The notes beneath the pieces are model-generated. The model searched no databases. It saw only the letters and a list, made by a program, of their open reading frames with translations, and had not been told where the DNA came from. A DNA stretch of 17,626 bases. Origin: Calditrichota bacterium. GTDB lineage: Bacteria > Calditrichota > Calditrichia > Calditrichales > Calditrichaceae. A program made the position numbers and the translations under genes. This document shows positions 5,227 to 14,220 of the stretch, piece after piece. Positions within the stretch are counted from its first letter, which is position 1, and each line of letters opens with the position of its first letter. The stretch is taken from positions 1-17,626 of the forward strand of contig RQOG01000153.1 of the NCBI GenBank assembly GCA_003854985.1, written 5' to 3'.

Positions 5227-5265
5227 TTGACAGTACGTACGTTTGTTTATATTTTACATACGTAT
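5227..5265 (+). promoter_or_regulatory. Promoter of the toxin-antitoxin operon with two palindromic operator candidates.
   Basis: TTGACA (5227-5232), a 15-17 nt spacer, then TATATT/TATTTT (5248-5255). The perfect palindrome GTACGTAC (5233-5240) sits in the spacer, and ATACGTAT (5258-5265) sits at the expected transcription start. Confidence 0.4.
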
Positions 5266-5282
5266 TGATTGGGGTGAATAAC

Positions 5283-5540
5283 ATGAATAAAAAATTAACT
5301 TTATTACTTGATGAAACAATAATCAGCCAGGCCAAGGAATACGCAAGAAAACAAAATGAAACGCTTTCCGGAATGGTTGAAAAATATTTTTCCTATATAA
5401 CAACAAAAAATCCCGGAAAAGTACATATAAGTACTTCCCGTGATATTGAAGAACTTTCGGGTATAATCAAAGTTCCGGATAATTATAATATTAAAGAAGA
5501 CTATCGTCAATATCGTTCAAATCGGATTTTAAGTGAATAA
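5283..5540 (+). CDS. Type II antitoxin, ribbon-helix-helix (CopG/VapB-like).
   Basis: The ATG at 5283 (MNKKLTLLLDETIISQAKEYARKQNETLSGMVEKYF) has a GGGGTGA SD. A beta-strand then two helices is typical of RHH. It overlaps the downstream PIN gene by 8 nt (GTGAATAA). Confidence 0.6.
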   Translation: MNKKLTLLLDETIISQAKEYARKQNETLSGMVEKYFSYITTKNPGKVHISTSRDIEELSGIIKVPDNYNIKEDYRQYRSNRILSE

Positions 5541-5964
5541 ACTTTTTATTGATTCTGATATTTTAATTGATTTACTGGCCAAAAGACCGCACTATGATGA
5601 AGCGCTGGGATTATTAGCACTTATTGCAGAGAATAAGGCTAAAGCCTATACTACGCCGCTTGTGTTCGCAAACGTAGATTATATTGTTACCAAATTCGGG
5701 AACAAACAAAAATCAAGAAAAGCAATAAGAACACTTCGAAAGAATATTTCTGTTTTAACCATGAATGAAAAGATCTTTGATGAAGCTCTTGAATCTTCTT
5801 TTTCTGATTTTGAAGATGCCTTACAATATTTCTCCGCGATGAATCAGGCCGTTGACTTCATAATTACGCGAAACAAAAAGGACTATGCTGCGGGAAAACT
5901 TAAAGTACTTACAGCAGGAGAATATCTGGATATTCACTATGCAGAGCAACGCTCAAAAGGCTAA
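5533..5964 (+). CDS. PIN-domain toxin (VapC-like ribonuclease).
   Basis: GTG start. The N-terminal LFIDSDILIDLL carries the first catalytic Asp, and further acidic residues fall in FSDFEDALQYFSAM and DFIITRNKKDY. The 143-aa size and position after a small RHH gene fit a toxin. Confidence 0.75.
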   Translation: MNKLFIDSDILIDLLAKRPHYDEALGLLALIAENKAKAYTTPLVFANVDYIVTKFGNKQKSRKAIRTLRKNISVLTMNEKIFDEALESSFSDFEDALQYFSAMNQAVDFIITRNKKDYAAGKLKVLTAGEYLDIHYAEQRSKG

Positions 5965-6468: not shown

Positions 6469-7851
6469 TTAAAACGAACGCACAATCTGAGCCACCAGAA
6501 AAGTGACCATAAAAGCAATAACCAGGGGCATCAGTGCTCCGATGGTGGTCCATTTGGCGCTTTTGGTTTCTTTCCAGATGGTTAAAATAGTTGTGGAACA
6601 AGGATTATGCAGTAAGGAAAACAGCATCAGATTGACAGCGGTGAGCAATGTCCAGCCGGCTTGATCGACTAATAATGATTTTAATTGCACCAGATCGCTT
6701 ATCTCAATCATCATGCCCGAATTGGTATAGCTCATGAGTATGGTGGGGACTACAATTTCATTGGCCGGAATGGCTATAATATAGGCCAGTAATATAGTGC
6801 CATCCATGCCAAGAAGATGCCCGAATGGCTGCAGGAACCGGGCAATCCACAAACTCAGGGATATGCCATCGATTGAAATATTAGCCAGCAGCCAGATGAT
6901 TCTGCCGGCTGGTGCCGCCATAATGATCGCTCGCCACAGGACAAATATGGTGCGGTCAATCAGTGATGTATAAAGAATGCGCATAATGTTTGGCTTGCGG
7001 TAAGGCGGCAGTTCCAGGGTAAAACTGCTGGCTTCCCCTTTTAAAATTGTTTTCGAAAGCGCCCAGGAAACCACGAAGGTAAAAATCACACCGAATAATA
7101 CAATACCGACCACCGATCCTGCGGCGATTATGGATGAAACTGCCGGGGGGAATGCGGCGGACACAAATACAATGGAAAGCATAATCAACGTGGGAAAACG
7201 TCCGTTGCAGGGAACGAAATTATTGGTTAAAATGGCGATCAGTCTTTCCCGCGGTGATTCGATAATCCGCGTGGCAATGACGCCGGCGGCATTACAGCCG
7301 AAGCCCATACTCATGGTCAGTGCCTGCTTGCCATGCGCGCCGGCCTTTTTAAATAACCAATCCAGATTAAAGGCTACCCGCGGCAGGTATCCGAAATCTT
7401 CCAGGATGGTAAAAATAGGGAAGAAGATGGCCATGGGCTGCAGCATCACCGCCACGACCCAGGCTAAACCGCGATATACGCCGTGTACAAAAAATCCGGT
7501 AAACCACCATGGTATATTCAGCCAATCCAAAACGGCCGCCATTTGATCTTCCAGCCAGAACAAAAAACCGGCGATCATCTGCGAAGGATAATTAGCCCCG
7601 ACAATGGTCACCCAGAATACTCCCATTAAAAGCAAAAACATGATGGGAAGTCCCCAGATGGGAGAGGTAAGAATACGATCGATTTTTAGGTCCAAATCGT
7701 ATTTGCGCTGTGAAGAGATATTCAATACTTTTGAACTGATTGTTTCCACATCTTTATAAATATCAATTACCATTATATCGCGGAAATTATCGTCCAGTCC
7801 TGAACGTACCTTGTTTGCTTTCTGGATAAGTTTCTTACCTGCCGAATTCAT
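6469..7851 (-). CDS. feoB: Ferrous iron transporter FeoB, C-terminal permease portion (nucleoside-recognition/gate domains).
   Basis: A 460-aa polytopic membrane protein. It starts with the FeoB linker KIDRILTSPIWGLPIMFLLLMGVF and then carries the paired FeoB membrane modules. Its ATG overlaps the stop of the G-domain ORF (ATGA), and AGGGGA sits 7 nt upstream. Confidence 0.85.
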   Translation of the reverse strand: MNSAGKKLIQKANKVRSGLDDNFRDIMVIDIYKDVETISSKVLNISSQRKYDLDLKIDRILTSPIWGLPIMFLLLMGVFWVTIVGANYPSQMIAGFLFWLEDQMAAVLDWLNIPWWFTGFFVHGVYRGLAWVVAVMLQPMAIFFPIFTILEDFGYLPRVAFNLDWLFKKAGAHGKQALTMSMGFGCNAAGVIATRIIESPRERLIAILTNNFVPCNGRFPTLIMLSIVFVSAAFPPAVSSIIAAGSVVGIVLFGVIFTFVVSWALSKTILKGEASSFTLELPPYRKPNIMRILYTSLIDRTIFVLWRAIIMAAPAGRIIWLLANISIDGISLSLWIARFLQPFGHLLGMDGTILLAYIIAIPANEIVVPTILMSYTNSGMMIEISDLVQLKSLLVDQAGWTLLTAVNLMLFSLLHNPCSTTILTIWKETKSAKWTTIGALMPLVIAFMVTFLVAQIVRSF

Positions 7852-8675
7852 AATGCCGTCCCCTGATCTTTTTGAGACGGACGGTCAAATATTGATTCGC
7901 CCAGAAATACATTCCATTCACCTTTTTCTATGGCTTTTTGCACCTTGATATCCCCATCGAGTAAGCGCATGGCTACCCAGCGCGGATTGGGCATATCGGG
8001 GAAAATCGTTTTGATTTCAGGAACCAGTTCATCCAGCGATTTTTTAATTTTATCACTGACCACAATACGGTGCGGTTTGGTTTTAATAATTCCGTCAATC
8101 ACATCGATTACTGCCTGAATGAGCTGACCTAAACCCTGTCCACTTCTGGCCACGGTTGGTATGACCGGCACGCCCAGTTCTTTTGAAAGCTGCGTATGAG
8201 ATACATCGATCCCTTTACGTTTAGCCTCATCAACCAGGTTAAGAGCTATGACCACTTTATTGGTAATCTCCAGAATCTGCAGGGTAAGATTCAGATTACG
8301 TTCCAGAACAGAGGCATCCACCACTATAATCGTGCAGTCCGGTTGACCAAAAAGTAGAAAATCCCTGGCAATTTCTTCATCAACGGATGCGGATAATAGT
8401 GAATATGTACCCGGCAGATCGACCAGTTTAAAGGATCTGCCACCCCATTTGAATCCACCTTCGGCACGGGTCACGGTTTTGCCGGGCCAGTTGCCGGTAT
8501 GCTGTTTTAAACCGGTTAAACTGTTAAAAACTGTACTTTTACCTGTATTGGGATTTCCGGCAAGCGCCACTACATGATCGATTTTATCAATTTCGATACC
8601 CAACCTTTTCAAATTGAAGCTGCAGGTATCGCAGACATTACCGGGAATAAGTCTGTTCTTTTTCTTGCGTTCCAT
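7848..8675 (-). CDS. feoB: FeoB N-terminal GTPase (G domain plus part of the helical/GDI domain) as a separate ORF.
   Basis: G1 GNPNTGKST, G3 DLPGT, G4 NLVD and G5 SGQG are all present. There is a roughly 30-aa N-terminal extension containing CDTC. GGAGAT SD sits 7 nt upstream of the ATG. Confidence 0.85.
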   Translation of the reverse strand: MERKKKNRLIPGNVCDTCSFNLKRLGIEIDKIDHVVALAGNPNTGKSTVFNSLTGLKQHTGNWPGKTVTRAEGGFKWGGRSFKLVDLPGTYSLLSASVDEEIARDFLLFGQPDCTIIVVDASVLERNLNLTLQILEITNKVVIALNLVDEAKRKGIDVSHTQLSKELGVPVIPTVARSGQGLGQLIQAVIDVIDGIIKTKPHRIVVSDKIKKSLDELVPEIKTIFPDMPNPRWVAMRLLDGDIKVQKAIEKGEWNVFLGESIFDRPSQKDQGTAL

Positions 8676-8749: not shown

Positions 8750-9736
8750 TCAGAATTTTTCAATAAAAATATTTCCGGCCTGTTTTTTACGTAAAGCGAT
8801 TTTAGCCCCACGGATGGAATAAGCCACCGGATCACCGCCAAATGAGCTGACTATAGCTTTGGTTATTTTTGCCCCTGGTGTAATACCCAGATCCAATATT
8901 CGCCTTCTGGCCAAACCCTGTATATCCGGTGAGAGGCCGATAACAATACCTGTTTCATTGGCAGACAGGTCCAACAGGCTTTTATTTTTCCTTGTTATCC
9001 CGCCCGTATAAGCAACCACATGAATATTTAGTGCTTCAAAAGTACTCAGAATCTGTTCCTTATCTTCAAATTTTATTGTAATTTTACAATCCTGCTTATC
9101 CGTAATTTTAATAAGCTGTTGAGGACGCAATCCCAACTTAAACAGTTTTTTACTGATATTATAGGGTTCATCTTCAATGTGATGAATCAATGCCTGATCC
9201 CCGGTAGTTAATTCGGTTACTGCCCGGATCTCTGTTTTTTTAATCCTGTGATCGATCGTCGGAATGGGATCACCATGCGGATCAATGGTTGGAAATCCGA
9301 GATGGACGTTTAATGCTTCCAGTCTGTCGCCCCGCAGATCATGTTCCATGTTTTCGGCCATACGGTGTATCTGGTGTATTGGCAGGTCTGTTTCCCTCCC
9401 CAGATAGGTTTCCCATAAACGATGAGCCCGGATAATTTCAATTACAACAGGTCGTCCTTCCGCTTTAAGCTCAATCCCTGTGGAAGTCATCCGGATCAAT
9501 CCTTTATTTTCCAGTTGATCCAAAATCCGGTAAATTTTATTTACCGATAATGATAGGGCACCTTTAAGACTTTCCACTGAGGCCGGTAATCCACGTTCAT
9601 TCCTGTGAAAAATAAACTTTAAGGCATCCTCATAATAAATACGGGTAAGTTTATTGTTGTAAGTTTTATCACGTTTGTAATAATAAATACCCAGGCCTGT
9701 AATTATAATTCCAAAAATAATATAATAAATCATCAT
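8750..9736 (-). CDS. Membrane-anchored DtxR-family metalloregulator with an extra C-terminal FeoA domain (TM, HTH, metal/dimerisation domain, SH3-like/FeoA, FeoA).
   Basis: Residues 1-21 (MMIYYIIFGIIITGLGIYYYK) form a hydrophobic helix. A winged-helix region and RAHRLWETYL...HQIHRMAENMEH...FPTIDPHGDPIP follow the DtxR N-domain pattern, then two SH3-like repeats. The second repeat (LGITPGAKI...GGDPVAYSIRGAKIALRKKQAGNIFI) is a textbook FeoA. Confidence 0.75.
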   Translation of the reverse strand: MMIYYIIFGIIITGLGIYYYKRDKTYNNKLTRIYYEDALKFIFHRNERGLPASVESLKGALSLSVNKIYRILDQLENKGLIRMTSTGIELKAEGRPVVIEIIRAHRLWETYLGRETDLPIHQIHRMAENMEHDLRGDRLEALNVHLGFPTIDPHGDPIPTIDHRIKKTEIRAVTELTTGDQALIHHIEDEPYNISKKLFKLGLRPQQLIKITDKQDCKITIKFEDKEQILSTFEALNIHVVAYTGGITRKNKSLLDLSANETGIVIGLSPDIQGLARRRILDLGITPGAKITKAIVSSFGGDPVAYSIRGAKIALRKKQAGNIFIEKF

Positions 9737-9754
9737 CTACCTGTTTAATATATG

Positions 9755-10411
9755 TTATTTAATAATTACTATAATTCCTTCCGCCATTTTACCTGAAAGC
9801 GACAAAAACTGTTTTCCATTAGTCAGCAGAAAGCTCGATTTACCAGGAGATAAATCGACCAACTCCCATACCGATCCTATCTTAAACTTTCTTTCAGTGA
9901 GGTAGTTCTCCGCTTTTGTATCCAGGTTTAGTTCATCTATTGTGAACATTAATCCGGTCTTCAAAGATTTAAGAACATGTTTTTTAATTTTTATGTCCAG
10001 GCAGGGAATTGATGAACCGTGCGGATCAACTGTTGGAAAATCCAGATATTTGTCGATATGATGCATCAGTTGATCGGAGACCACATGTTCCAATCGTTCA
10101 GCCTCTTCATGTAATAACTGACCGTCAAGTTTCAATACTTTTTCCAGAAAGGATTCGATCAAACGGTGTTTGCGAACCAGCCTAAGGGCAATCTGCTTCC
10201 CGGCATCTGTAAGACAGGCTCCATCCGATTTATTGTAATCAATAAGGCTTATTTTACACAATTGTTGAAACATGGATAGCACTGTAGGTGGTTTGACCTT
10301 ATATAATTCCGAAACCCTTTTTGCTGTCGCTTTACTATTTTTATCATTGATATACCAGATTAATTTTAGATAATCTTCCTGGCTGGGTGTTAATTTTGTA
10401 AACGAATTCAT
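9755..10411 (-). CDS. DtxR/IdeR/MntR-family metal-dependent transcriptional repressor with the usual C-terminal SH3-like domain.
   Basis: SQEDYLKLIW, RKHRLIESFL, HEEAERLEH and FPTVDPHG match the DtxR family. It lies 18 nt upstream of the next gene. Confidence 0.8.
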   Translation of the reverse strand: MNSFTKLTPSQEDYLKLIWYINDKNSKATAKRVSELYKVKPPTVLSMFQQLCKISLIDYNKSDGACLTDAGKQIALRLVRKHRLIESFLEKVLKLDGQLLHEEAERLEHVVSDQLMHHIDKYLDFPTVDPHGSSIPCLDIKIKKHVLKSLKTGLMFTIDELNLDTKAENYLTERKFKIGSVWELVDLSPGKSSFLLTNGKQFLSLSGKMAEGIIVIIK

Positions 10412-10523
10412 AAAGTTAGATATACCTACTTTAAAATAAGATTGCTCTAATTTATATTGTTTTTAAGAAAATGCAATTGTTTTTTTATGACCCGGGTAAA
10501 AAAATTGTTAATTATATTTCTCC

Positions 10524-10532
10524 ATTCTAATC
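10524..10532 (-). promoter_or_regulatory. Minus-strand GATTAGAAT, a −10-like element about 113 nt upstream of the dtxR-like gene. It is a candidate feo-operon promoter.
   Basis: The + strand reads ATTCTAATC. It is divergent from the + strand motif at 10563-10577. Confidence 0.25.
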
Positions 10533-10562
10533 TCATTTTAATATTCTCTGATTGATACGCTA

Positions 10563-10577
10563 TTTTAGGTATAGAAT
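10563..10577 (+). promoter_or_regulatory. Copy 3 of TTTAG-GTA-TAGAAT, a promoter candidate for the 2-oxoacid dehydrogenase operon.
   Basis: TTTTAGGTATAGAATTAT lies about 150 nt before the ORF at 10726 and 355 nt before the E1 ATG. Confidence 0.3.
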
Positions 10578-10725
10578 TATAAAACCAACTTTTTTGTTTG
10601 AACAGAACTGTTTCCGTCCGGGAAATTCCAGATCCTGTGGTCAGATTATTAAAATACCTGGCCGGAAATTTTTTCTTACGATTATTTCGTTTACTAAGGC
10701 GTCATAAAAAATAAAAGGCGCTGAT

Positions 10726-10941
10726 GTGAAATCCAAAAAACAGGCCATGTGCCCGCTCTTTCCGGATGTTGTCTGCCCGCAGGGGCAGGAAGCCGCCGAT
10801 GCCTGCCAGGTGCGGCAGAACGGCGATTATGATCCGGTTAACGATTTCCGCGATTATCTTTATATGAACTGTGCGATTCAGATCGCTCACCGGCAGAGTG
10901 AGAGTGAACAGAAAATGACCGGGAAACAGTCCGATGAATGA
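10726..10941 (+). CDS. Possible small Cys-containing ORF (71 aa) or structured GC-rich leader overlapping the E1 start by 8 nt.
   Basis: GTG start with a weak SD. The composition is GC-rich and coding-like, with four Cys residues and no recognisable family. It contains the hairpin CTGCCC-GCAG-GGGCAG (10775-10790). Confidence 0.2.
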   Translation: MKSKKQAMCPLFPDVVCPQGQEAADACQVRQNGDYDPVNDFRDYLYMNCAIQIAHRQSESEQKMTGKQSDE

Positions 10942-12982
10942 AGCGCTTGCCGTCAAATCTCAGCCTAAAGTCCGGAAATCGGGATTAAATAAATCCGTGC
11001 TGATTTCCCTGTATAAAAATATGATTACTTCGCGTTTGATGGATGAGAAAATGTTGATTATGCTTAAACAGGGTAAAAGCTTTTTTCATATCGGCGCGGC
11101 CGGCCATGAGGCGGCTCAGACCGCAGCCGGATTCGTTCTGCGTCCCGGAATTGACTATGCCTATCCCTATTATCGCGACCTGGCGTTTGTGCTGCAATAC
11201 GGAGTTACACCTGTGGAAATCTTTCTCAATTTTTTAGCCAAAGCGGCTGATCCCAGTTCCGGCGGCCGGCAAATGTCCAATCATTACGGTCATAGAGAAA
11301 AACGAATAGTCTCCCAGTCCAGTCCAACGGGCACGCAGTATTTACAGGCTGTCGGCACGGCCCTGGCCATCAAAAAAACAGGCGGCGATGAAGTCGTCTA
11401 TGTTTCTTCGGGCGAGGGCGCTACCAGTCAGGGTGATTTTCATGAGGCGTTAAACTGGGCGTCACGGGACCGTTTGCCGGTGATTTTTTTCATAGAAAAC
11501 AATAAATATGCCATATCCACGCCGGTAACCGAACAGATGAGCGGTGAATCGGTTTTTAAATTTACCGCTGGGTATGAAGGATTGAACCGTTTTCGGGCAG
11601 ACGGCACCGATTTTTTTGACACATACAACATAATACATCAGGCGGTTGAACGGGCAAAATCAGGAGATGGAGCGGCGCTGATCGAAGCCGATACGGTGCG
11701 GCTGATGCCTCATTCTTCTTCCGATTCACAAAAAAAATATCGCAGCAGGGAAGACCTGGAAAATGATATCAGGCGCGATCCGGTTTTGAGATTTCAGAAT
11801 TTCCTGCTTGAAAAAGAATATGCGGATGAATATGAAATTGATGAAATAAAAGCCGGATGCCGGAAGCTAGTCGATGAATCCGCTGAGGAGGCGCAGTCTT
11901 TTGCTGATCCGGATAAAAAAACACTATTCAATTTTATCCTGGCGCCGCAGGAAGAACACGCGCATTTAGCTTATGAAAAAATCGAGCCAAGCGGCAATAA
12001 AGTAGTTATGGTTGACGCTATCAATCATGCCTTAAAGGAAGAAATGGCTGCCAATGATAAAATGTATATTTTTGGCCAGGATGTGGCCGACGGCAAGGGC
12101 GGCGTATTCACGGCCACAACCGGCATCTCTACGGAATTCGGCAAAGAGCGTTGTTTTAACTCGCCTTTGGCCGAATCGAGCATCGTTGGCGTAGCCATCG
12201 GGATGGCGGTTACCGGATTAAAACCGGTGGTGGAAATCCAGTTCGGCGATTATATCTGGACGGCCATGATGCAGATTCGTAACGAGCTTTCCACGATGCG
12301 CTGGCGCTCTAATAATTTCTGGCAAGCGCCGGTGGTTATCCGCATACCGGTTGGCGGGTATATCCATGGCGGATTGTGCCATTCGCAGAATATCGAAGCG
12401 TTTTTCTCGCATATCCCGGGATTAAAAATTGCTTATCCCTCCAATGCGGCCGATGCCAAAGGACTTTTAAAAACCGCCGTCAGAGGCGGCGATCCGGTAT
12501 TGTTTTTGGAGCATAAAGGATTATACCGTCAGAGTAATGCCGCTACGCCGGAACCGGACAGCAAATACTTACTGCCTTTTGGGAAGGCAGCCCTGAAAAA
12601 GGAAGGACAGGATATCACCATAATCACCTGGGGGGCGTTGGTGCAGAAATCGCTCGAAGCCGCCAAAGCGCTGGAGAAGGAAGGCGTTTCCGTTGAAATT
12701 ATCGATATCAGGACCATTAATCCTTTGGATAAAGAAACGATTCTGCAATCGGTTAAAAAAACCGGAAAGGTTTTAGTGGCCCATGAAGATACCCGCTTCC
12801 AGGGTTTCGGGGCGGAAATTGCCGCACACCTTGCCGAATTTACCTTTGAATATCTGGATGCCCCGGTTATGCGCCTTGCCGGCGCGGACACGCCGGTGCC
12901 GTTTAGTCCGGTTCTGGAAGAAGAGGCGTTACCGCAGATTGATGATATAGCGGATGCGCTTAGAAAGTTATCGGAGTATTAA
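10934..12982 (+). CDS. 2-oxoacid dehydrogenase E1 component with fused alpha and beta subunits (TPP-dependent).
   Basis: 682 aa. The alpha part has the TPP motif GEGATSQGDFHEALNWASRDRLPVIFFIENN (GDG-X26-NN). The beta part has transketolase-like Pyr and C-terminal domains (GQDVADGKGGVF..., VVEIQFGDY..., PVLFLEHKGLY). Confidence 0.85.
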   Translation: MNEALAVKSQPKVRKSGLNKSVLISLYKNMITSRLMDEKMLIMLKQGKSFFHIGAAGHEAAQTAAGFVLRPGIDYAYPYYRDLAFVLQYGVTPVEIFLNFLAKAADPSSGGRQMSNHYGHREKRIVSQSSPTGTQYLQAVGTALAIKKTGGDEVVYVSSGEGATSQGDFHEALNWASRDRLPVIFFIENNKYAISTPVTEQMSGESVFKFTAGYEGLNRFRADGTDFFDTYNIIHQAVERAKSGDGAALIEADTVRLMPHSSSDSQKKYRSREDLENDIRRDPVLRFQNFLLEKEYADEYEIDEIKAGCRKLVDESAEEAQSFADPDKKTLFNFILAPQEEHAHLAYEKIEPSGNKVVMVDAINHALKEEMAANDKMYIFGQDVADGKGGVFTATTGISTEFGKERCFNSPLAESSIVGVAIGMAVTGLKPVVEIQFGDYIWTAMMQIRNELSTMRWRSNNFWQAPVVIRIPVGGYIHGGLCHSQNIEAFFSHIPGLKIAYPSNAADAKGLLKTAVRGGDPVLFLEHKGLYRQSNAATPEPDSKYLLPFGKAALKKEGQDITIITWGALVQKSLEAAKALEKEGVSVEIIDIRTINPLDKETILQSVKKTGKVLVAHEDTRFQGFGAEIAAHLAEFTFEYLDAPVMRLAGADTPVPFSPVLEEEALPQIDDIADALRKLSEY

Positions 12983-12984
12983 AT

Positions 12985-14220
12985 ATGAAACTGGAAATGG
13001 TTATGCCAAAAATGGGTGAGTCCATTACCGAAGGCGTTATTGTAAAATGGTTAAAAGCGGCAGGGGACACGGTGGAAAATGATGAGATCATTCTGGAAAT
13101 AAGCACCGATAAAGTGGATTCGGAAATACCGACGCCTGCGGCGGGTAAAATCATTGAATTGCTGGCCGGAGAAGGCGAAACGGTCGAAGTAGGTAAACCT
13201 ATCGCCGTAATAGAGACAGATCATGTAACCTATACAAAGAAATCTGCGGAAATAGTCGCCGGTCAAAATGAGCCGGTCAGTCAACCGGTTAAGCAGCCGA
13301 CGCTGAATAAAAGCATACAATTTAAAAAATCAAACCGGTTTTATTCACCGGTGGTCATGAATATGGCTTCGCAGCATAACCTGTCCATGGAAATTCTGGA
13401 AAGCCTTCCCGGATCGGGTTCGGGCGGACGCCTGACCAAAAAGGATTTACTGGCCTATTTAAATTCCGATACTCAGTCTAAATCACAAACCTCCGTATCG
13501 GATACCGTGCAAAAGCCGGCCGGTGACATGGTGGAAATCCTGCCCATGGATCATATACGTAAACGTATCGCGGAGCATATGATCCATTCCATTAAGACTT
13601 CCGCCCAGGTGGCGCTTTATACGGAAGTGGATATGTTAAATATTCATAAAATCCGTGAGGCCAATAATGAAATCTTTAAAGCCAGGGAAGGCTTTGGCCT
13701 GACTTATCTGCCGTTTGTCGTGGAAGCGGCCGTGCAGGCGTTAAAGGAATTTCCCCTGCTTAACGCCCGGATTGACGGCGATAATATTTTAATAAATAAA
13801 TTTTATAATATCGGTATTGCCGTGGCGGTAGAAAACGGATTAATTGTACCCAATATTTTTCATTGTGAAGAACTTAATCTGACAGGCATTGCCCGGGCGA
13901 TTAACGATCTGGCGGTTCGGGCCAGGAATAAAAAACTGAATCCCGATGAATTAACAGGCGGCACATTTTCGGTATCCAATTTCGGCCTTTATGGCGTCAC
14001 CGCGGGATTTCCTATTATAAACCAGCCGCAATCCGCCATTTTAGGCGTCGGCGCGGTGAAAAAACGCCCGGTGGTAATCGATGACGCTATTGCCATCCGG
14101 CCGGTTATGCATCTCTCGCTGACCATTGATCACCGTCTGATTGACGGGGCGATGGGATCACAGTTTTTACAGCGCATCGCTGGTCTTCTCGAAAATTATG
14201 ATATAACCCAAAAACCATAA
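12985..14220 (+). CDS. Dihydrolipoamide acyltransferase E2 (lipoyl domain, peripheral-subunit-binding domain, catalytic domain).
   Basis: Lipoyl-lysine motif EISTDKVDSEIP. E3-binding domain SPVVMNMASQHNLSMEILESLPGSGSGGRLTKKDLLAYL. Catalytic DHRLIDG motif. It lies 2 nt after E1. Confidence 0.85.
   Translation: MKLEMVMPKMGESITEGVIVKWLKAAGDTVENDEIILEISTDKVDSEIPTPAAGKIIELLAGEGETVEVGKPIAVIETDHVTYTKKSAEIVAGQNEPVSQPVKQPTLNKSIQFKKSNRFYSPVVMNMASQHNLSMEILESLPGSGSGGRLTKKDLLAYLNSDTQSKSQTSVSDTVQKPAGDMVEILPMDHIRKRIAEHMIHSIKTSAQVALYTEVDMLNIHKIREANNEIFKAREGFGLTYLPFVVEAAVQALKEFPLLNARIDGDNILINKFYNIGIAVAVENGLIVPNIFHCEELNLTGIARAINDLAVRARNKKLNPDELTGGTFSVSNFGLYGVTAGFPIINQPQSAILGVGAVKKRPVVIDDAIAIRPVMHLSLTIDHRLIDGAMGSQFLQRIAGLLENYDITQKP

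Follow-up and report, generated by a model that had tools for sequence, protein, structure and literature searches.

Does the feoB locus of contig RQOG01000153.1, from a Calditrichota bacterium (assembly GCA_003854985.1), contain a gene that has recently been broken, or does it encode a FeoB transporter that is genuinely made in two pieces? Within the stretch analyzed (the window, 17,626 nucleotides (nt)), FeoB is encoded by two open reading frames (ORFs), ORF1, a GTPase ORF of 275 amino acids (aa), and ORF2, a permease ORF of 460 aa. The initial annotation had left two alternatives for this arrangement, a real two-polypeptide FeoB or a recent frameshift in a formerly single gene. According to the comparative evidence presented below, the locus very probably encodes a genuine two-subunit FeoB-type divalent-metal importer, which originated from an old gene fission and has been kept as two genes by selection.

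The first line of evidence was provided by the relatives of the two products. Among the best 120 database matches for each half, all ORF1 homologues are stand-alone proteins of 246–295 aa from several phyla, some of them named by NCBI as “FeoB small GTPase domain-containing protein”, and 118 of the 120 ORF2 homologues are approximately 460 aa long, the only two fused ones being P0132 (742 aa) and P0193 (739 aa). ORF2 itself is identical (100%) to an NCBI entry named “ferrous iron transporter B [Calditrichaceae bacterium]”. At the level of gene order, one genome per species was scanned, and the resulting 80 orthologous loci, closed long-read chromosomes among them, were classified by script as split (76 loci), fused (three loci) or without one of the halves (one locus). 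These loci span Calditrichota, Gemmatimonadota, Zixibacteria, Verrucomicrobiota, Armatimonadota, Latescibacterota, Chloroflexota, Acidobacteriota, Planctomycetota and Ignavibacteria. The closest relative (L081, from the independent sample SRR24270839, with 87% identity in the G protein) likewise has one gene for 275 aa and one for 460 aa, which overlap by the same 4 nt. Fused FeoB in all related genomes, which the initial annotation had named as the observation contrary to a true split, is thus not what the orthologous loci contain, and its first alternative, the genuine two-polypeptide FeoB, agrees with the split state of 76 of the 80 loci in about ten phyla and with the identical pair in the closest relative. 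The two-gene FeoB is an old, widespread arrangement, forming a large multi-phylum family that seems to have gone unstudied, and is not peculiar to this genome.

The junction itself deserves attention, because the possibility of a recent frameshift, a pseudogene or an assembly error at a homopolymer in a formerly single feoB depends on it. The coding-strand sequence of the junction is ...GATCAGGGGACGGCATTATGAATTCG. The two ORFs described in the initial annotation are present with the lengths given there, on the minus strand (no strand had been named), and the ATGA overlap and the AGGGGA motif 7 nt upstream of the permease ATG can be read directly at 7864–7848; that is, both a stop/start overlap and a Shine-Dalgarno (SD) sequence for the downstream gene within the upstream ORF are found here. 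At the same time, the contig comes from a short-read metagenome-assembled genome, and a G4 run (7863–7860) and an A5 run (7873–7869) are located not more than 25 nt from the junction. Since no more than 10 codons upstream of the ORF2 ATG are open in the ORF2 frame, a single insertion or deletion (indel) between 7851 and 7881 could fuse the two frames. The earlier concern about a homopolymer error was, therefore, justified as far as the presence of the runs is concerned, but comparison with other genomes shows two ORFs to be the real state: the closest relatives are split in the same way into ORFs of the same lengths, the split extends to 76 of the 80 loci including those on closed long-read chromosomes, and the junctions vary in frame and spacing in a way that one error does not explain. 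Moreover, an SD sequence is conserved at the junction, and both FeoB halves are under strong purifying selection, with a ratio of nonsynonymous to synonymous substitutions (dN/dS) of 0.06–0.12 for both halves in three Calditrichaceae loci (rough values, as synonymous sites are nearly saturated). The frameshift or pseudogene explanation was rejected on these grounds, and its remaining probability is negligible.

The heterogeneity of the split junctions is also informative with respect to a second explanation, according to which programmed ribosomal frameshifting or stop-codon read-through yields a single fused FeoB and the two ORFs are only apparent. The 4-nt overlap of the ORFs and the fact that fused relatives read through the equivalent linker would be compatible with such a mechanism. 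Nevertheless, a 4-nt ATGA/GTGA overlap was found in 16 loci, a 1-nt overlap in nine, and spacers of 0–9 nt in approximately 20, with longer spacers, up to tens of nt, in others; every reading frame of the permease ORF relative to the G ORF occurs among the split loci, in-frame stops included. A single indel or a systematic sequencing artefact cannot account for this heterogeneity, and a conserved programmed frameshift is excluded by it. In addition, no slippery site is conserved, and each permease ORF starts at a codon of its own, with an SD sequence in front of it; this explanation was rejected as well, its probability being as minute as that of a broken gene.

Initiation signals at the junctions were quantified against random positions inside the same G genes. 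An SD match of at least 4/5, located 4–18 nt upstream of the permease start, was present at 38 of the 45 tight junctions (84%) against 33% in this background, and a perfect 5/5 match at 29% against 2.4%. In the G proteins of Anaerolineae (e.g., L024–L038), the conserved C-terminus ...KMSVEGRQ, followed by the stop codon, is encoded by codons in which GGAAGG or GGAGG doubles as the permease SD sequence. The 3′ ends of these Anaerolineae G genes are an example of coding sequence constrained by a downstream ribosome-binding site. Judged from such sequence signals, it is a conserved design that the permease is initiated independently, at a position where coupling to G-gene termination would be possible, and the overlap together with the SD enrichment suggests that ORF1 and ORF2 are translationally coupled.

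By domain content, the two products together make up a FeoB. In Pfam, ORF1 matched FeoB_N (E = 4e-61, residues 35–188) and, of FeoB_Cyto, the first half alone (profile positions 3–46 of 90, residues 208–251), and ORF2 matched Gate in two stretches (E = 1.3e-24) and FeoB_C (E = 2.2e-15). The G1–G5 motifs, reported as intact in the initial annotation, were indeed recovered: G1 GNPNTGKS at residue 40, the G2-region PGKTV at 64, G3 DLPG at 86 and G4 NLVD at 146 by motif, and G5 TVA at 174 by alignment to the TNA of the P. furiosus NFeoB; ORF1 as a whole aligned with the NFeoB crystal sequences at E = 3e-49. With profile NF007105 (E. coli-type FeoB), residues 36–251 of ORF1 corresponded to positions 6–221 and residues 4–307 of ORF2 to positions 222–515. 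As ORF1 ends at profile position 221 and ORF2 starts at 222, the halves abut in register, and this comparison of both products with full-length FeoB, a check proposed earlier for the junction, revealed no missing or duplicated residues; residues 252–275 of ORF1 form an extra tail beyond the coverage of the profile. Between them, the two ORFs supply the G1–G5 domain, the helical (GDI/S) domain, which is divided, and the membrane domain with two Gate motifs and FeoB_C. What they do not provide is a single polypeptide: the domains are spread over two ORFs, each of which is below the equivalog cut-offs, with 213.8 and 171.7 bits for ORF1 and 175.9 and 119.7 bits for ORF2 against 315.65 (TIGR00437) and 683 (NF007105).

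To locate the break in three dimensions, the fused relative P0132, which is 73% identical to ORF2 and 68% identical to ORF1, was modelled by AlphaFold2 (AF2) as a proxy for the complex, with a mean predicted local distance difference test score (pLDDT) of 82. In this model, the G domain is followed by helices 212–228, 235–244 and 247–254 and a short helix 261–266; residues 265–280 (NGNENGREEGTSVSKN), the sole segment with pLDDT below 50, map to the split position; beyond residue 280, confident helices 283–299 and 304–323 and a helix 329–342 precede the first membrane helix, which starts from residue 348. A Foldseek comparison of the full-length model with the PDB returned only NFeoB crystal structures as top matches (3K53, 3A1S, 9D8D, 3I8X and others), aligned over approximately 290 columns with target TM-scores of 0.75–0.88, and all of the top 50 matches were soluble NFeoB fragments. 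In the model, the G-domain start and the disordered loop are only about 228 residues apart, so the crystallographic NFeoB unit extends across the split into the helices encoded by ORF2. A search of the PDB copy with the ORF2 sequence gave no match, and no solved FeoB membrane domain or full-length FeoB was found in it. Thus, as the half match to FeoB_Cyto, the register of NF007105, the P0132 model and the Foldseek alignments all indicate, the split falls inside the helical (GDI) domain and not at a domain boundary, as had been claimed from the sequence; in the model of the fused relative, the break is a surface loop, predicted to be disordered, in the middle of that domain.

The same break point was found outside the split-FeoB loci. 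An exhaustive profile-free search of 1.84 billion representatives yielded 16,713 matches at E ≤ 1e-3; because this representative library is rich in contig-end fragments, which makes raw lengths uninformative, the matches were classified by sequence. Among the best 150 of the 16,713, there were 28 complete-looking G-only proteins, ending within 50 residues of the first helical half-domain, and 52 proteins with permease homology, the rest being fragments or ambiguous (62 of 150 ambiguous). Six G-only representatives carry an N-terminal FeoA domain (P0253, P0256, P0268, P0274, P0283 and P0290); in these FeoA-G proteins, FeoB_Cyto was matched from position 1 to 42–48 of 90, and the tails comprise approximately 25–30 residues after the RWxAxRLLDG helix. 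They stop at the same point as the G subunits of split FeoB, and the break point is, therefore, common to at least two architectures.

The history of the split was approached by a neighbour-joining tree of the concatenated halves, in which the three fused loci appeared as single leaves in three different subclades that are otherwise split. This position of the fused loci indicates that the two-gene state is ancestral within the clade and that the fusions are secondary. The putative re-fusions, three independent ones, are L003 (Gemmatimonadetes J002), L008 (Armatimonadota) and L054 (Anaerolineae), with a low-complexity linker; this linker is the G-half tail read through into the N-terminal part of the permease half. 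The three loci could serve as natural controls for a comparison of the split and fused states. An ancestral split within a multi-phylum clade, together with a related FeoA-G subgroup that stops at the same point, could also be taken to mean that the two-gene state is a primitive FeoB that preceded fusion rather than a product of fission. This seems very unlikely to us, as canonical fused FeoBs dominate among the more distant relatives and the break cuts the centre of a compact helical domain that crystallizes as one unit, a position expected if an integrated protein underwent fission. A cut through a compact domain would thus favour the fission of an integrated ancestor.

From these data, a working scheme can be proposed for the two-subunit importer. 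The soluble subunit of 275 aa would combine the GTPase domain with the three or four helices that open the helical/GDI domain, and the 460-aa subunit would begin with the last two helices of this domain, followed by the membrane pore. The half-domains would re-associate non-covalently, rebuilding the normal connection between NFeoB and the pore; it is reasonably likely that the soluble G subunit docks on the permease in this way, its helical domain being completed by the two N-terminal helices of the permease. Owing to the ATGA overlap and the SD sequence in the last codons of the G gene, translation of the subunits would be coupled, and they would be made together at a ratio of about 1:1. The apparent operon, which is conserved, runs from a MntR/DtxR regulator through an apparently membrane-anchored DtxR-like protein with two FeoA domains to the G subunit and the permease as the distal pair. 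The soluble MntR/DtxR protein would regulate transcription, judging by its family, the membrane-anchored protein might be the FeoA component and possibly a metal-dependent modulator, and the transported metal may be Fe2+ or Mn2+.

Several points weigh against this interpretation and should be considered together. The near saturation of synonymous sites leaves the dN/dS values rough, and neither half reaches the NCBIfam equivalog cut-offs for FeoB, although this is expected for half proteins. Binding between the G subunit and the permease is something that we infer, and translational coupling has been deduced from the sequence alone. Tight coupling is also not universal, as spacers of tens to hundreds of nt occur in about one third of the loci, partly owing to uncertain choice of the start codon. 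Finally, given the MntR-like ligand sets of the upstream regulators, the substrate may be Mn2+ instead of ferrous iron.

The genes upstream of the G gene, which are conserved and were overlooked in the initial annotation, are probably part of the same system. A homologue, of about 330 aa, of the 328-aa protein is encoded directly 5′ of the G gene in essentially all loci, the fused ones included, and homologues of the soluble DtxR/MntR regulator are often located further upstream. The family of the 328-aa protein (4478 matches, labelled “DtxR family Mn-dependent transcriptional regulator”, “FeoA domain-containing protein” or “hypothetical”) shows an N-terminal hydrophobic helix followed by basic residues in at least 62 of 75 loci, invariant H105, E109, H124, E131 and H132 at DtxR/MntR-type ligand positions, and an invariant DPHGDPIP motif. 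A glutamate occupies the position of DtxR Cys102, which makes the metal site MntR-like. In the structure model (pLDDT 91.8, predicted template modelling score (pTM) 0.81), one helix, 2–47, leads from the hydrophobic N-terminus into the DtxR fold and is followed by a winged helix-turn-helix (HTH), dimerization helices and two SH3-like barrels; the nearest solved folds by Foldseek were those of the Mn/Fe repressors 5ZR6, SloR, ScaR, IdeR and MtsR (target TM-scores 0.75–0.90). The protein, thus, has the DtxR/MntR architecture of a winged HTH, a dimerization domain with metal ligands and an SH3-like domain, and PF01325, the Pfam model of the DtxR DNA-binding region, was not detected in it. By its conserved N-terminal hydrophobic helix, it appears to be membrane-anchored. 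The FeoA partner of the module takes an unusual form, namely two FeoA domains at the C-terminus of this DtxR-like protein, and as the only FeoA-domain protein in the module, it most probably supplies the FeoA function.

This accessory protein suggests a further model, in which the G subunit is a dissociable switch, recruited or released by the membrane-anchored DtxR-like/2×FeoA sensor according to the cytoplasmic metal level, and the system is a dynamic regulator; if so, selection would keep the two genes separate for the sake of post-translational feedback on uptake. The location of the gene directly upstream in essentially all loci, the retention of its N-terminal helix, the invariant metal-ligand positions and the confident model with helix 2–47 entering the DtxR fold and two SH3 barrels are all consistent with it, as is the reported nucleotide dependence of the FeoA–NFeoB interaction (PMC8980893). 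However, the accessory gene also stands beside the three fused versions, so a free G subunit is not required for its presence; the winged HTH is structurally intact, and the 328-aa protein may be a plain DNA-binding regulator; the model is also conjectural as to interactions. It is, in our opinion, rather unlikely.

Another clade-specific feature belongs to the G subunit: of 120 homologues, 108 have a CxxC motif at a distance of 25–27 residues N-terminal to G1, and none of 21 canonical fused FeoBs among the representatives has this motif. The motif is possibly a metal or redox site, and its region is of low confidence in the structure model. Taken with the split and the accessory protein, it allows a bolder proposal, that split FeoB, the DtxR-like/2×FeoA protein and the CxxC-tagged G subunit make up an importer class of its own, in which the GTPase is free and exchangeable and its docking on the pore is set post-translationally by a membrane-tethered metal sensor. 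We consider this quite unlikely; were it true, uptake would be gated by direct feedback beyond transcriptional control, and the maintenance of the fission across about ten phyla would be explained. Returning to the two-subunit importer, the positions of its parts and of the accessory genes are collected below.

Table 1. Positions of the two feoB genes, their junction elements and the upstream genes in the window
Feature	Position (nt)	Strand	Remarks
FeoB permease subunit (ORF2)	6469..7851	(-)	460 aa; N-terminal ~50 residues, second half of helical domain; then membrane domain (Gate ×2, FeoB_C)
Codons for ORF2 residues 1–50	7702..7851	(-)	Two helices predicted to complete the helical (GDI) domain
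ATGA overlap, G-gene stop/permease start	7848..7851	(-)	ATG 7851–7849, TGA 7850–7848; same 4-nt overlap in 16/80 loci and in L081
Shine-Dalgarno-like AGGGGA	7859..7864	(-)	Inside the G gene, 7 nt 5′ of the permease ATG; spacer CGGCATT at 7858–7852
Variable C-terminal tail of G subunit, residues 252–275	7851..7922	(-)	Equivalent to the disordered linker of fused relatives; last codons carry the permease SD
FeoB G subunit (ORF1)	7848..8675	(-)	275 aa; N-terminal CxxC extension, G1–G5 domain, first half of helical (GDI) domain, variable 24-aa tail
CxxC motif C15-D-T-C18 of ORF1, residues 15–18	8622..8633	(-)	N-terminal, clade-specific
Accessory protein	8750..9736	(-)	328 aa; N-terminal hydrophobic (putative transmembrane) helix, DtxR-like winged HTH, metal-binding/dimerization domain, two FeoA (SH3-like) domains
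Soluble DtxR/MntR-family regulator	9755..10411	(-)	218 aa; first gene of the apparent four-gene operon

Regulatory signals upstream of the module were sought with negative results: a promoter scan gave 13 matches against 14.3 in shuffled sequences, i.e., no excess, and an inverted-repeat search of the intergenic region 10411–10934 detected only short AT-rich palindromes (10468–10504) and no recognizable DtxR/MntR box. The flanks of the module in the window contain ordinary chromosomal genes (OmpA-family, SPFH, HD, a PIN toxin pair, 2-oxoacid dehydrogenase E1/E2, GcvT and Dus). Immediately downstream of the module, on the opposite strand, a 91-aa ORF (5265..5540, plus strand) overlaps by 8 nt a 143-aa PIN-domain ORF (5533..5964, plus strand; PIN_3, E = 2.7e-15), and the two are probably a VapBC-type toxin-antitoxin pair. 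Divergent from the module, a 682-aa protein (10934..12982, plus strand) with E1_dh, Transket_pyr and Transketolase_C represents a fused alpha/beta 2-oxoacid dehydrogenase E1, and it is adjoined by the E2 gene (12985..14220).

As to previous work, a survey counted 31–44 FeoA-NFeoB ORFs without a membrane region, with the suggestion that they “may be sequencing errors”, and took DtxR-fused FeoA proteins out of consideration (Sestok et al. 2022, PMC8980893). The evolutionary survey of Feo systems by Gomez-Garzon et al. (2022, mBio, PMC8749426) covers FeoA-FeoB fusions, the presence of FeoC and Cys-rich peptides and makes no mention of split FeoB, the words “split” and “truncated” being absent from it. 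PMC10353542 was set aside, as its subject is feoA located apart from feoB in Helicobacter, which is a different matter, and PMC10781979 proved to have no bearing on the question. No description of an intragenic FeoB split was found in the literature searched, with older subscription reviews outside its reach; provisionally, the architecture is undescribed, even though databases already list the halves as separate proteins. The six FeoA-G representatives described above are ORFs of the type suspected there. The present results correct the assumption that membrane-less FeoB-type ORFs are probably sequencing errors (PMC8980893), and they point to an unstudied accessory protein, the apparently membrane-anchored DtxR-like one with two FeoA domains. 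Gene fission as such is commonplace; here, it cuts the coupling domain of a transporter with an unresolved coupling mechanism and is accompanied by unusual conserved accessories. How GTP binding and hydrolysis are transmitted from the G domain to the pore in FeoB is a long-standing open question, and with separate G and pore proteins, each could be purified, labelled, titrated or mutated on its own, and natural re-fusions such as P0132 would be available for comparison.

Compared with the canonical single-chain FeoB of E. coli, V. cholerae, T. maritima and P. furiosus (NF007105/TIGR00437; 3HYT, 3I8S, 3K53, 3A1S, 9D8B), the split pair has the same G1–G5 domain, helical/GDI domain and membrane domain with two Gate motifs and FeoB_C, but it consists of two polypeptides broken in the helical domain and carries the extra N-terminal CxxC extension, and its module is without a small stand-alone FeoA or FeoC gene. 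In ABC transporters, NTPase and pore modules likewise occur on one chain or are encoded by adjacent, often overlapping genes and assemble non-covalently; this is an analogy only, since the folds and mechanism are unrelated and the FeoB cut runs through a domain, not between domains. The three-domain regulators of the DtxR family (IdeR, SloR, ScaR, MtsR and the Mn-dependent repressor 5ZR6) have the winged HTH, the dimerization/metal-binding domain and the SH3-like domain in common with the 328-aa protein, which adds an N-terminal membrane helix and a second FeoA domain and is genetically locked to the split feoB. The natural FeoA-FeoB fusions of Bacteroides fragilis and Porphyromonas gingivalis (PMC8980893) are likewise Feo rearrangements useful for probing communication between the parts, and the system described here has moved in the opposite direction, by fission of FeoB rather than by its fusion with FeoA.

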